DNA of 64,000 bases from Planctomycetota bacterium (GTDB taxonomy: Bacteria; Planctomycetota; UBA11346): assembly GCA_038231435.1 (NCBI GenBank), contig JBBRLJ010000017.1, positions 1 to 64,000 of the forward strand. Direction: 5' to 3'. Numbering within the stretch: the first letter of the stretch is position 1; each line of letters starts with the position of its first letter. The position numbers were made by a program. This document shows positions 18,001-21,000 of the stretch, in pieces.

Positions 18001-21000
18001 GCCGCGCCGAGGCGCGGCTGTGGGACGTGCTGTGGGAACTGGCGGTGCGGCGCGATCCGGCCTGCCACGCGCTGGTCGAGCAGGCCCGTCACCATATCGA
18101 GATGCGCCTGTCGGACCGCCTGTCGGTGGCGGGGGTCGCAAGCGTGCTCGGCTGTTCGCACAATCACCTCACGCGGCTGTTCCAGCGCGACCTGCGCATC
18201 ACCGTGGTGGGCTACATCCGCAACCGGCGCGCCCAGCGCGCTCGCCATCTGCTCCGCCATTCGACCATGGCGATCGGCGCGATCGCCGCCGAGGTCGGCA
18301 TCCGCGATCCACACCTGTTCAACAAGGTGATCCGGCGCGAGCTGGGAAAATCGCCGCGCGGGGTGCGCGAGGCGGGGTGACGTCAGCTCAGACCGGGAAT
18401 CGGATCAGGCCAGGCGCGCGCGCAACTCGGCGAGATCCATGACCTCGCCCGGAGTCGGCCGGTCCATCGCCACCATCGCCAGCAGGTTCGGCTCGCCCTG
18501 CAGCGGCGCCGGCCACGGCGGTGGCGCGTGCAGCCAGATCCCGTCGCGGCGCATGTGCGAGCGGTCGCTCGAGAGCGTGGCGTGGTATGCGGCACCGCCC
18601 ATGACGCGGAAGAGCGGACGCAGCTCGACGGGAATCGGTTCGGCGAACGCGGCGGCGAGGTAATCGCCGGCGGCGACAGGGGCGCCCAGCGTGCTGTCGA
18701 GATCCCACGCCTGCCATGGCGAGCCCGCGTGGCCGCGCGAGAACAGCAGGACATGGTAGTCCCAATCGACATGTTGACCGCCGGCGATGGTCTGGCGCTT
18801 CACGCGCACGCTGCCCGACAGAGACGAGACGATCGCCACCAGCACATCGCCCTTGGCCACCAGGGGATGGCGGCACAGCCGCCAGACGTTCTCCTCGCAG
18901 AAGAATGGCTGGTGGTCGAAGCCGAAGCCATGGCCTCCGCAGCCGACGCTCACGCGGGTGTCCGAGCGATGATCATGCTCGAGGCGCGGGCTTGCGGTCG
19001 AGCAGCTGGCCAAGCGGCTCACGGTTGACCCAGATGTACTCGACGATCGAGGCCACGCTCACGACCGCGCATACCCAGGTCGCCCAGAAGGCGTAGGTCA
19101 GCTGCCACGGGTAGCGGTGGTTCCAGAAGGCGGGCAGGGCCATGATCGAGATCAGGGCGATGCCTTGCAGCCAGGCCTTGAGCTTGCCCGAGGCGCGCGC
19201 GGCGAGCACCACGCCCTTGGTCGCGGCCATGGCGCGCAGCGCGCCCGCGATGATCTCGCGCAGCACCATCAGGAAGACCGGCAGCCAGGGCACCATCGCC
19301 GCGCCGAGTACTGCCTGGCCAGCGGAGGCGCCGACGACGTACACCGGCTGCATGCCGCGGATGGCTTCATAGGACACCGTCTCGGGGGCGGACATCGTCG
19401 CGCCCGCGGCCTGCTGCGCGGCGCCAATGACCACCTCGTACCCGATTCCACCGGCCGGCAGCAGGAAGGCGAGGAACACCGAGATGCGGTAGAGCACGTC
19501 GCAGAACGGATCGGCGAGCTTGCCGAAATCAGAGACCTCGCCCCGCCGGCGGGCGATCCGCCCGTCGGCCAGGTCGGTATATTCGGCGAGCGCGCACAGC
19601 AGGCCCGCTGCCCAGAAGCAGTAGTTACCCTCGATCGGCAGCAGCAGGTACGAGCACACGATGCATGGCATCAGCACCAGGCGCGAGAGCGTGATCTTGT
19701 CGGCGAGGGTGATGTACATGCGGAGCCGCAGAGAGACTACGTACGACCCGGTGCGCACCAACGGGCAACCAGGAGGAGAGCGGATACCGACAGCCGGAGG
19801 GCGGCCAGCGCCGCCCGGGCGAGCGTTCAGGGCAGCAGCTGGTGCTTACGCATGCACGCCAGCAGCGCATCCTTCTTCGCCGGGGTCATGGTGATCATCG
19901 GCAGGCGGAACTGCTCCTTGCAGAAGCCCAGCGCCGCGACCGCGGTCTTCACCGGGATCGGATTGGTCTCGCTGAAGGTGACCTTCTGCAGGTCGCACAC
20001 CAGCGCGTGCAGGCGTCGGGCCTCGGCGGGATCGGGCTTGGCGCAGGCGTCGACGTACTGGCGCATCAGCTTGGGCGCGAAGTTGGCCACCACGCTGATC
20101 ACGCCGATCGCGCCCAGGGCCATGAAGGGCAGCGTGTAATGATCGTCGCCGCTGATCACCGGGATGCCGCGCTCGACCATCTCCTGCACCTGCTCGCAGT
20201 TGCCGGTGGATTCCTTGACGCCGGCGAGGTTGCCGAGCGCCATGACGCGCGCAGTGGTCTCGGGCAGCAGGTTGACGCCGGTGCGCCCGGGGACGTTGTA
20301 GAGCACGTACGGGAGCTTGGTCGCCTCGCGCACCGCCTTGAAGTGCTGGAAGAGGCCTTCCTGCATCGGCTTGTTGTAGTACGGCGTGATGGTGAGGATG
20401 CCGTTGGCGCCGAGGCGCTCCGCCGCCTGGGCCAGGCTCACCGCTTCGCGCGTGCTGTTCGACCCCGCGCCGGCGATCACCGGCACGCGGCCCGCGGCCG
20501 TCTGCACCACCTCGCCGATCACCTGGTGCTGCTCGTCGTGCGAGAAAGTCGCGCTCTCGCCGGTGGTGCCGCAGGGCACGATGCCCTGGGTGCCTTGGGC
20601 GATGTGCCACTCGACCAGCTTCTTCAGCGCCTTGAAGTCCACGCGATCCCCGTCGAAGGGCGTGACGATGGCGACGATGGAGCCGGTGAATGGGGGGGCC
20701 ATGACATCCTCTTGTGGACGCGCAGACTCAAGCGGGCGTGGACGGGTGCCAGCGAAAAGGGCCGGTCGCTGCCAGGCAGGCGCCCGGATCCATGGCGGCG
20801 TCCGTTGCCCGTGATGGCGCTTCCGCCATGCTGCCGGCCCCGATGACCGCCTTCAGCGCCAACCTCAACAAGATCGCCCTGCTGCGCAACACCCGCGACA
20901 ACGGCATCCCCGATCTCGAGCGCTTCGGCGAGCTGTGCATCGCTGCCGGAGCGGATGGCCTCACCGTGCATCCCCGGCCGGATCACCGCCACACCCGCCC

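Follow-up and report, generated by a model that had tools for sequence, protein, structure and literature searches.

A homolog of the eukaryotic N-terminal glutamine amidase NTAQ1 in a planctomycete genome that encodes Bpt, Aat, and ClpS

Results

The NTAQ1-type gene and its start site

The window analyzed here is a stretch of 64,000 nucleotides (positions 1 to 64,000 of contig JBBRLJ010000017.1, assembly GCA_038231435.1) from a Planctomycetota bacterium, the genome of which comprises 5.2 Mb in 108 contigs and is 87.6% complete. On the minus strand, an ORF at 18405-18953 that begins with GTG and ends with TGA encodes a protein of 182 amino acids, in agreement with a preliminary description of this DNA. 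The features of the locus are as follows.

17568..18380, plus strand: AraC-family regulator, convergent, its end 24 nt from the stop of the NTAQ1-type gene (weak AraC-family matches, all under cut-offs)
18405..18953, minus strand: CDS of a predicted NTAQ1-type N-terminal glutamine amidase (ORF and translation, Pfam PF09764, match to human NTAQ1 in the PDB, AF2 model, Foldseek)
18552..18557, minus strand: codons CAC ATG of His133-Met134 (human His148, Met149), which bind the alpha-amino group in human NTAQ1
18702..18704, minus strand: codon GAT of Asp84, third triad member (human Asp97; DNA read and alignment)
18753..18761, minus strand: codons GAC TAC CAT of Asp65-Tyr66-His67 (human Asp79, Tyr80, His81), comprising two residues that bind the N terminus plus the catalytic His
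18753-18755, minus strand: within the preceding feature, codon CAT of His67 (human His81; DNA read)
18894-18896, minus strand: codon GAG of Glu20 (human Glu29; DNA read and alignment; PMC11168063 section 2.3)
18897..18899, minus strand: codon TGC of Cys19, predicted nucleophile (human Cys28; DNA read and alignment; passages of PMC4214742)
18954..19022, minus strand: possible N-terminal extension of 23 codons, from an in-frame upstream GTG at 19022
18973..19761, minus strand: CDP-alcohol phosphatidyltransferase, pgsA-like (TIGR00560 pgsA, 89.7 bits, under the cut-off of 109.1)
19827..20702, minus strand: dapA, 4-hydroxy-tetrahydrodipicolinate synthase, opening the run of genes on this strand (TIGR00674, 339.4 bits against a cut-off of 206.15)

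Initiation at the GTG at 19022 would give a protein of 205 amino acids and an overlap of 50 nt with the end of the upstream gene. The additional codons fall outside the Pfam match, and the N termini of homologs do not match them. Bacterial homologs begin 8-13 residues ahead of the block DYQP.YCEENVW, which fits the start at 18953. No sequence resembling a Shine-Dalgarno motif was seen before the GTG start of the NTAQ1-type gene. The translation, judged by eye, has no signal peptide-like N terminus. The GC content of the gene (0.703) and its GC3 (0.869) are similar to those of the adjoining genes and thus give no sign of a recent arrival. DNA of the stretch is present in sediment and soil metagenome runs, with no RNA source among those listed.

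Family and fold

The protein is a full-length member of the NTAQ1 family, as had been proposed, based on an end-to-end Pfam match and on matches to structures of human NTAQ1. PF09764 (Nt_Gln_amidase) scored 111.9 bits against a cut-off of 27, with profile positions 1-182 of 184 aligned to residues 14-179; the E value was 3.5e-32 here and 6.7e-33 in the preliminary description, for the same family and the same extent. A six-frame search of the genome with this profile detected a single copy, at 111.6 bits. There was no NCBIfam model for the protein. Searches of the PDB with phmmer reproduced the earlier values exactly (4w79, E 7.3e-17; 3c9q, E 7.6e-17), and residues 16-177 of the query aligned with residues 25-196 of the human NTAQ1 chain.

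An AlphaFold (AF2) model of the protein (pLDDT 93.9, pTM 0.89) has the alpha-beta-alpha sandwich fold of human NTAQ1. The best 15 Foldseek matches of this model were all entries of the human enzyme, 8jj entries and 4w79 among them, at TM scores of 0.83-0.86, rmsd values of 1.9-2.4 A, and 29-30% identity. The next fold was that of protein-glutaminase, with a TM score of 0.38 or less and an E value of 0.01 or worse. By analogy with the human enzyme, the ORF is predicted to encode an NTAQ1-family cysteine amidase that is small and cytoplasmic.

Catalytic and substrate-binding residues

According to passages of PMC4214742, the catalytic triad of human NTAQ1 consists of Cys28, His81, and Asp97, in agreement with the numbering of the preliminary description. 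The phmmer alignment coordinates place these residues on C19, H67, and D84, with the codons confirmed on the DNA, so that the triad positions are retained as claimed; the motifs FFCEENVW, WDYHVLL, and WDLDS are likewise all present in the translation. In the human enzyme, Glu29, Asp79, Tyr80, His148, and Met149 bind the alpha-amino group and the first peptide bond of the substrate (PMC11168063 section 2.3). Alignment mapping identifies the corresponding residues here as E20, D65, Y66, H133, and M134. The triad and all five N-terminus-binding residues are conserved in 115 of 115 distinct bacterial homologs, and the N-terminus-binding residues are equally conserved among homologs from genomes in which no Bpt match was obtained.

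Gene neighborhood

The stop of the pgsA-like gene lies 19 nt ahead of the NTAQ1 start. Given this short gap and the common strand, the two genes are probably cotranscribed. The same order, CDP-OH_P_transf followed by NTAQ1, is also found in locus L006 of the closest relative at a protein identity of only 51-53%, which indicates long retention of the NTAQ1 gene. As local synteny, this order is no argument for a functional link.

NTAQ1 is unlinked to bpt and clpS, a caveat already raised in the preliminary description: searches with the genome's own Bpt, Aat, and both ClpS proteins (hmmsearch and phmmer) found nothing in 119 NTAQ1 loci covering 1.30 Mb. Similarly, none of the Bpt, Aat, and ClpS Pfam families was present among 155 flanking gene products. 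When the four genes on either side of NTAQ1 in 81 loci were clustered and Pfam was run on these 155 products as a search for a conserved neighborhood, only lineage-local synteny emerged. A giant CHAT-AAA16-TPR protein is encoded directly upstream of NTAQ1 in three loci (L036, L038, L068), an FHA protein upstream in four (L028, L044, L055, L077), and an ADP-ribosylglycohydrolase-phosphatase downstream in four others (L062, L072, L074, L082). A few longer proteins fuse NTAQ1 with UDPGP, DUF309, or an ABC permease; these are possibly gene-call errors and are uninformative.

N-degron pathway components in the same genome

The reported presence of Bpt, Aat, and two ClpS proteins in this genome was upheld by profile searches of the contigs. 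For Bpt, there is one ATE_C match (contig C36, 114 bits), which scores 189.3 on NF002346 against a cut-off of 170, and for Aat one Leu_Phe_trans match (contig C14), which scores 174.5 on TIGR00667 against a cut-off of 143.55. Two Pfam matches identify ClpS (contigs C13 and C60; 71.9 and 48.5 bits, cut-off 23), both under the NCBIfam equivalog cut-offs. The specificities of Aat and Bpt are predicted from their families, and those of the two ClpS proteins are likewise predictions. On the ClpA model, the highest-scoring AAA+ protein attains 803.9 bits, under the cut-off of 993.15, and is thus of the ClpA/ClpC class and no true ClpA equivalog. ClpP has three matches, one of them with an in-frame TAG. 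The genome also contains a pyroglutamyl-peptidase-like gene (Peptidase_C15, 60.5 bits). A branch for N-terminal Asn is not evident: NTAN1 (PF14736) gave no match in the genome, a search that says little given that control genomes were silent too.

Distribution and history of bacterial NTAQ1

In a sample of 401 Planctomycetota genomes, NTAQ1 occurred in 21, from 8 family codes. These carriers fall almost entirely among genomes that encode ClpS, Aat, and Bpt. Bpt was present in 18 of the 21 carriers vs 87 of 380 non-carriers, Aat in 19 of 21 vs 13 of 57 control non-carriers, and ClpS in 21 of 21 vs 23 of these 57. The 8 families may belong to a single ClpS-rich class, and kin are not independent. 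Carrier genomes are not large, at 2.8-10.4 Mb and mostly 4-6 Mb. Within the window's own family, 7 of 23 sampled genomes contain NTAQ1 in addition to the genome of the window.

Among 201 evenly drawn Myxococcota genomes, 20 carried NTAQ1, with no enrichment of Bpt (6/20 carriers vs 46/181 non-carriers); two of these six Bpt matches were of a weaker ATE_C type of approximately 60 bits. Co-occurrence, earlier called only mildly enriched, is stronger than that in the Planctomycetota sample, and enrichment of Bpt is absent from the Myxococcota sample. Bpt was over the cut-off in 54 of the best 80 NTAQ1 carriers when their genome contigs were searched. Carriers in culture include Polyangium fumosum DSM 14668, Plesiocystis pacifica SIR-1, and Enhygromyxa salina, which have Bpt, as well as Sulfidibacter corallicola M133 and Acanthopleuribacter pedis, which do not. 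Overall, 39 of 115 distinct carriers had no Bpt match, including the complete chromosome of Sulfidibacter corallicola, an isolate of Acanthopleuribacter pedis, and 5 of 9 carriers with Spirochaetota named in the record. The NTAQ1 family is thus not dependent on Bpt in general. ClpS was detected in all 57 NTAQ1 carriers tested. Of the Bpt-less carriers outside the Planctomycetota sample, 36 were tested, with ClpS in 36 and Aat in 35; both proteins may occur in nearly every genome of Myxococcota, Acidobacteriota, and Spirochaetota, which makes the ClpS count uninformative outside Planctomycetota. A divergent second Aat-like transferase was noted in Bpt-less spirochetes.

The NTAQ1 gene tree intermixes phyla. 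Monophyly of the 8 copies from the window's family was rejected (p 0.0125) by an AU test that used 43 of the 115 rows of the tree, and NTAQ1 has thus been gained more than once in this family. Each gain happened in a ClpS- and Bpt-positive background. Strong purifying selection acts on NTAQ1 across Myxococcota, Planctomycetota, Acidobacteriota, and Spirochaetota. No sequence named as eukaryotic was present among the 120 matches listed in each of two protein searches, which were all unnamed or bacterial.

Discussion

A possible tertiary step

The human enzyme suggests how this protein could enter an N-degron pathway. Glu20, Asp65, Tyr66, His133, and Met134 would grip the free alpha-amino group and the first peptide bond of a substrate starting with Gln. 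With His67 and Asp84 activating it, Cys19 would then attack the side-chain amide of the N-terminal Gln. Release of ammonia and hydrolysis of the thioester would leave a protein or peptide with an N-terminal Glu. Such a product would belong to the substrate class of Bpt, a transferase that depends on Leu-tRNA and acts on Asp or Glu at the N terminus; it would add Leu. The new N-terminal Leu could be bound by ClpS, and the protein passed to the ClpA/ClpC-class unfoldase and ClpP. This would make N-terminal Gln a tertiary destabilizing residue of a bacterial Leu/N-degron pathway. Both the NTAQ1 activity and any flux between successive enzymes are inferred.

The proposal that the gene completes a three-tier pathway is supported by the presence of the parts and by the nesting of NTAQ1 within pathway-positive Planctomycetota. 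It is weakened by the lack of linkage, by the absence of enrichment in Myxococcota, and by the Bpt-less carriers. For this genome, we consider a tertiary tier from NTAQ1 through Bpt to ClpS to be a reasonable hypothesis rather than a finding, plausible and unproven, with a probability of approximately 0.5.

A broader version of this reading is more tentative and falls somewhat short of even odds. N-terminal Gln would be tertiary destabilizing in some bacteria, and the full hierarchy of amidase, aminoacyl-transferase, and N-recognin, generally regarded as eukaryotic, would then also operate with ClpS/Clp as its base. Horizontal transfer would have brought in NTAQ1 more than once, with retention only where a ClpS N-degron pathway already runs. 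In Bpt-less carriers, another enzyme would have to serve the Glu step, and the second Aat-like transferase of Bpt-less spirochetes would be a candidate.

Alternative roles

It is also possible, although we lean against it, that the protein is a true N-terminal Gln amidase with a selected role other than degradation through Bpt and ClpS, in which case any hand-over to Bpt would be incidental. The Bpt-less third of the carriers, one of them a complete genome, and the Myxococcota counts favor such a role, as do the absence of linkage to N-degron genes across 119 loci and the equal conservation of N-terminus-binding residues in Bpt-less carriers. Neighboring genes vary by lineage and often encode signaling or processing proteins, such as the CHAT-AAA16-TPR, FHA, and ADP-ribosylglycohydrolase-phosphatase proteins described above. 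By contrast, stand-alone housekeeping does not predict the nesting in ClpS-, Aat-, and Bpt-positive Planctomycetota.

This possibility has two variants. Pyroglutamate blocks aminopeptidases and every enzyme that requires a free alpha-amino group, and the amidase could prevent its formation by cyclization of the N-terminal Gln that is exposed when proteins or peptides are cleaved. The Peptidase_C15 gene argues against this variant, as pyroglutamate removal is already covered in this genome, with no complementarity to NTAQ1. Alternatively, NTAQ1 could act in lineage-specific processing or signaling. No conserved partner favors any single alternative. Alpha/beta hydrolases encoded upstream of NTAQ1 in Nannocystaceae were considered as aminopeptidase partners and rejected; they are generic, and those of loci L022 and L032 are MetX.

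We consider it improbable that the bacterial branch acts on free glutamine, gamma-glutamyl compounds, or internal Gln and that the NTAQ1 name is misleading. Protein-glutaminases and the BTLCP/LapG enzymes, which are secreted or periplasmic, act on internal Gln or on peptide bonds. Passages of PMC4214742 and PMC10318531 place Chryseobacterium protein-glutaminase and BTLCP/LapG, like NTAQ1, in the broad papain-like/transglutaminase class of folds, with a Cys-His-Asp triad, and the former source includes protein-glutaminases and BTLCP proteases in the wider class, which leaves room for another substrate. The identity of only about 29-30% to the human enzyme points in the same direction, and our literature search found no report of an assayed bacterial member. 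On the other side, the five residues that bind the alpha-amino group and the first peptide bond are invariant in all bacterial sequences compared. The AF2 model has a TM score of 0.85 to human NTAQ1 vs only 0.38 to protein-glutaminase, so that the match to protein-glutaminase and BTLCP/LapG is a remote structural one, and the N terminus lacks signal peptide-like features, unlike the secreted protein-glutaminases. Least probable is a horizontally acquired passenger gene without an integrated function in this organism: its patchy occurrence (21/401 Planctomycetota, 20/201 Myxococcota), the mixing of phyla in the gene tree, and the rejection of a single origin in the window's family are in keeping with a passenger, and against it stand the intact frame, the retention of all functional residues in 115 homologs, a base composition like that of the neighbors, and a gene order kept with L006 despite sequence divergence.

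Comparison with known systems

Eukaryotic NTAQ1 (WDYHV1/C8orf32; EC 3.5.1.122; PDB 3C9Q, 4W79, 6KGJ, 8JJF-8JK2) belongs to the same family and has the same fold over its whole length, the same triad, and the same N-terminus-binding set of Glu, Asp, Tyr, His, and Met. Each has a single domain, and the sizes are similar, at 182 amino acids here and about 205 in the eukaryotic enzyme. In animals and plants, NTAQ1 converts an N-terminal Gln of proteins to Glu and so marks them for degradation; the mouse and human enzymes strictly require a free N-terminal Gln with a peptide bond after it. The bacterial host differs in having no ubiquitin, ATE1, or UBR ligases. If the bacterial protein is degron-linked, the downstream steps here would be leucylation by Bpt and ClpS/Clp, whereas those of eukaryotic NTAQ1 are arginylation and UBR/proteasome. 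Yeast NTA1 and metazoan NTAN1 perform the same logical step, the deamidation of an N-terminal amide to a secondary destabilizing residue (PMC11168063 section 2.4), but their folds and families are unrelated to NTAQ1.

The closest bacterial parallel to the proposed tertiary tier is the Vibrio vulnificus Leu/N-degron pathway (Aat, Bpt, ClpS, and ClpAP), in which Bpt renders N-terminal Asp and Glu destabilizing according to passages of PMC3692480 and bioRxiv 10.1101/2021.07.26.453911. Aat, Bpt, two ClpS proteins, and Clp protease parts are also present here, and the N-terminal Asp/Glu substrates of Bpt include the expected NTAQ1 product. The Vibrio-type pathway, as described in those passages, has primary and secondary destabilizing residues only, with no amidase tier. 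Further differences are the unfoldase here, which is of the ClpA/ClpC class and under the ClpA equivalog cut-off, and the location of NTAQ1 apart from the pathway genes.

As had been pointed out earlier, the passages of the literature consulted present the amidase step as eukaryotic, and our search found no study of a bacterial NTAQ1. The conserved bacterial family makes a bacterial tertiary tier directly testable by experiment. If it is true, the layered scheme of N-degrons would either predate ubiquitin or be independent of it, and the products of bacterial proteases with a newly exposed Gln would have a defined fate downstream. If it is refuted, the family, one third of whose carriers are without Bpt, would still need a function. 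Databases already apply the NTAQ1 name to bacterial proteins.

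Results

The NTAQ1-type gene of the window

The window carries one gene related to NTAQ1, the eukaryotic protein N-terminal glutamine amidohydrolase (hNTAQ1 in humans), as the last gene of a same-strand run:

19827-20702, minus strand: dapA, first gene of the run
18973-19761, minus strand: pgsA-like CDP-alcohol phosphatidyltransferase, directly upstream of NTAQ1
18405-18953, minus strand: NTAQ1-type coding sequence, ORF of 182 aa, GTG start, TGA stop

Starting at an alternative in-frame GTG (19022) would lengthen the protein by 23 residues that fall outside the family match; the shorter form starting at 18953 agrees with the N termini of 34 aligned bacterial homologues. 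The gap to the upstream stop is 19 nt, no SD-like motif is visible before the start, and an AraC-family gene is convergent with NTAQ1. GC (0.703) and GC3 (0.869) are similar to those of adjoining genes. The order phosphatidyltransferase-NTAQ1 is common to the locus of the closest relative (L006, a Planctomycetota MAG; 51-53% identity), which we read as inherited gene order that does not imply a functional link.

The preliminary description had assigned this gene to the NTAQ1 family and matched it to human NTAQ1, and both claims were borne out. Pfam Nt_Gln_amidase (PF09764) is matched over nearly the whole profile (positions 1-182 of 184, E 3.5e-32, 111.9 bits against a cut-off of 27), and the human chains 4w79 and 3c9q are again matched over residues 16-177 at E 7e-17. 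NCBIfam holds no model for the NTAQ1 protein. The window protein adds a new member to an established family and is present as a single copy in this genome (5.2 Mb, 108 contigs, 87.6% complete).

An AlphaFold2 model computed from 35 bacterial sequences has a mean pLDDT of 93.9. All 15 top Foldseek matches in the PDB are human NTAQ1 entries (TM 0.83-0.86, rmsd 1.9-2.4 A); protein-glutaminase, the next-ranked fold, has a TM of only 0.38. The catalytic triad of human NTAQ1, given as Cys28, His81 and Asp97 in PMC4214742, corresponds in PDB alignment coordinates to Cys19, His67 and Asp84 of the window protein, with codons confirmed on the DNA. According to a 2024 structural study (PMC11168063), hNTAQ1 holds mainly the free alpha-amino group and the first peptide bond, through Glu29, Asp79, Tyr80, His148 and Met149, and discriminates Gln from Asn by measuring side-chain length after the N terminus is bound. 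These residues correspond to Glu20, Asp65, Tyr66, His133 and Met134 of the window protein. All eight triad and N-terminus-binding residues are kept in 115 of 115 distinct bacterial NTAQ1 sequences from several phyla. This invariance provides the best argument at hand that bacterial NTAQ1 would act on the N-terminal Gln of peptides or proteins rather than on free or internal Gln. We consider it very probable that the window gene encodes an N-terminal Gln amidase.

Distribution and phylogeny of bacterial NTAQ1

Among 1.84 billion cluster representatives scanned in full with HMMER, 1348 clusters matched at E ≤ 0.001, and a pattern scan of species genomes gave 123 relatives. The best 80 of these 123 belong mostly to Myxococcota (Polyangia, Nannocystaceae), Planctomycetota, Acidobacteriota (Holophagae, Sulfidibacter, Acanthopleuribacter) and Spirochaetota, with a few Gammaproteobacteria, one Obscuribacter and one Lentisphaerales MAG. 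In samples drawn evenly across each phylum, NTAQ1 is present in 21 of 401 Planctomycetota genomes (8 family codes) and 20 of 201 Myxococcota genomes. Bacterial proteins of this kind have already been labelled "protein N-terminal glutamine amidohydrolase" by JGI and, once, by NCBI. Three longer fusions, with UDPGP (P0253, 658 aa), DUF309 (P0145, 277 aa) and an ABC-transporter permease domain (P0224, 588 aa), may be gene-call artefacts.

A tree of the 115 distinct sequences, with good support at only 24 of its 112 inner branches, shows the phyla intermixed. The window sequence groups with that of L006 beside a spirochaete-rich clade, away from the seven further copies found in its planctomycete family. 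A single clade for the eight own-family copies, a group defined by taxonomy although the tree had been seen beforehand, was rejected by an AU test on a 43-row subset (p 0.0125). The gene has moved horizontally.

Candidate downstream N-degron components

The preliminary description proposed that NTAQ1 converts N-terminal Gln to Glu, that Bpt adds Leu, and that ClpS delivers the product to a Clp protease. The window genome holds the following matches, all outside the window:

C36:17067-17849: Bpt (likely start at a Met 35 codons in), ATE_C 114 bits, NF002346 189.3 against a cut-off of 170
C14: Aat, TIGR00667 174.5 against 143.55
C13 and C60: two ClpS copies, above the Pfam cut-off, below the NCBIfam equivalog cut-offs
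C46: ClpA/ClpC-class unfoldase, ClpA model 803.9 bits, below the cut-off of 993
Three matches: ClpP, one of them (C4:116649-117182, minus strand, 228 bits) with an in-frame TAG

The interrupted ClpP may reflect pseudogenization, read-through or a sequencing error. On C36 (14606-17849), bpt follows an 832-aa ORF beginning MRISLSWIKRLL, which looks pheT-like (phenylalanyl-tRNA synthetase beta chain) and which the longest bpt ORF overlaps. Bpt acts on N-terminal Asp and Glu, both destabilising in Vibrio vulnificus, as stated in two sources (PMC3692480; bioRxiv 10.1101/2021.07.26.453911). The proposed scheme therefore has a candidate gene for every enzymatic step.

Co-occurrence with Bpt, Aat and ClpS

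Downstream components in the Planctomycetota sample of 401 genomes. Aat and ClpS controls are genomes G001-G060 without the three NTAQ1 carriers in that set; related genomes are not independent observations, and family is the highest rank distinguished.
Bpt: 18/21 NTAQ1 carriers, 87/380 non-carriers
Aat: 19/21 NTAQ1 carriers, 13/57 controls
ClpS: 21/21 NTAQ1 carriers, 23/57 controls

The three carriers that lack Bpt have both Aat and ClpS. Many of genomes G001-G060 are >90% complete, yet ClpS is found in only 23 and Aat in only 13 of the 57 controls. The ClpS system seems to be absent from much of the phylum, so that NTAQ1 is nested inside ClpS-positive genomes. The nesting extends over several NTAQ1 lineages with separate placements and over 8 family codes; it is what retention of NTAQ1 "only where product matters" would be expected to look like, which is suggestive rather than proof.

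Other counts speak against such retention. Among Myxococcota, Bpt occurs in 6 of 20 carriers and 46 of 181 non-carriers. Many genomes of this phylum give both strong and weak ATE_C matches. Strong matches score ~100-130 bits and lie in ORFs of roughly 250-300 aa; weak ones score ~52-72 bits, lie in open frames of ~340-580 aa and may not represent a Bpt. G566 and G641 have the weak kind only. Across all phyla, 54 of the 80 best carriers have Bpt above the cut-off, and 39 of 115 distinct carriers lack it, including the complete Sulfidibacter corallicola chromosome and an Acanthopleuribacter pedis isolate. The Bpt-less carriers tested outside Planctomycetota have ClpS (36/36) and Aat (35/36), counts that add little, as they cover carriers only.

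Four of five Bpt-less spirochaete carriers checked have, beside the normal Aat, a second, divergent Leu_Phe_trans-domain gene of 56-68 bits (loci L144-L147 on G467:C22, G468:C156, G478:C35 and G469:C128); the fifth, G477, has no second gene. All five Bpt-positive carriers checked from the spirochaete-rich NTAQ1 clade (G457, G441, G452, G480, G446) have a single Aat. The divergent gene may substitute for Bpt, and its four hosts, being close kin, count as one lineage.

Discussion

Given NTAQ1 activity and family-typical Bpt and ClpS, NTAQ1 would turn the proteins it deamidates into substrates of Bpt, regardless of whether this role was the selected one. Because of this expected hand-over, with family specificities assumed, and of the planctomycete nesting, we put the probability of a three-tier N-degron pathway in the window genome at about 0.5. 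The leading alternative, which we regard as a serious but lesser possibility, is that the same amidase chemistry serves another purpose, for example avoiding pyroglutamate-blocked N termini or lineage-specific processing. The many carriers without Bpt speak for it, as does the lack of linkage to N-degron genes: a Pfam scan of 155 NTAQ1-flanking genes found no ClpS, ATE or Leu_Phe_trans domain, and searches with the two ClpS proteins, the Aat and the Bpt of the window genome, the last also as a 21-row profile, gave no match in 119 NTAQ1 loci (1.30 Mb). Linkage is absent at all loci examined. Action on another substrate is unlikely, and we give little credence to NTAQ1 as a functionless passenger.

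Our literature search on NTAQ1, in the portions of the sources accessible, found only eukaryotic work. The one abstract that combines NTAQ1 with bacteria describes the eukaryotic pathway reconstituted in bacteria (PMC13478464), and the accessible passages of a 2024 N-degron review place NTAQ1 in the figure legend of the mammalian pathway and name ClpS as the bacterial recognin (PMC11441550). A bacterial three-tier pathway, if true, would be a new form of an already known type of N-degron system.

Neighborhoods of NTAQ1 are conserved within lineages only, such as a generic alpha/beta hydrolase in Nannocystaceae and PAS-STAS in four Polyangium, together with the following, all on the same strand as NTAQ1:

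L036:4240-7959, L038:4173-7946, L068:4065-7922: CHAT (caspase-like)-AAA_16-TPR giant of 1240-1286 aa, stopping 20-40 nt upstream of NTAQ1, in three Acidobacteriota
L028:7348-7986, L044:7405-7989, L055:7363-7992, L077:7320-7964: FHA-domain protein, directly upstream, in four "deltaproteobacterial"/Myxococcota loci
L062:8581-10152, L072:5901-7415, L074:8565-10070, L082:7468-8178: fusion of ADP-ribosylglycohydrolase and dual-specificity phosphatase, after NTAQ1, in four Spirochaetota loci

The hosts of the CHAT loci (Sulfidibacter, a Holophagae MAG and Acanthopleuribacter) all lack Bpt. In L028, a Ser/Thr kinase gene lies downstream of NTAQ1. At the three CHAT loci, the gene for an N-terminal amidase adjoins that for a protease that creates new N termini.
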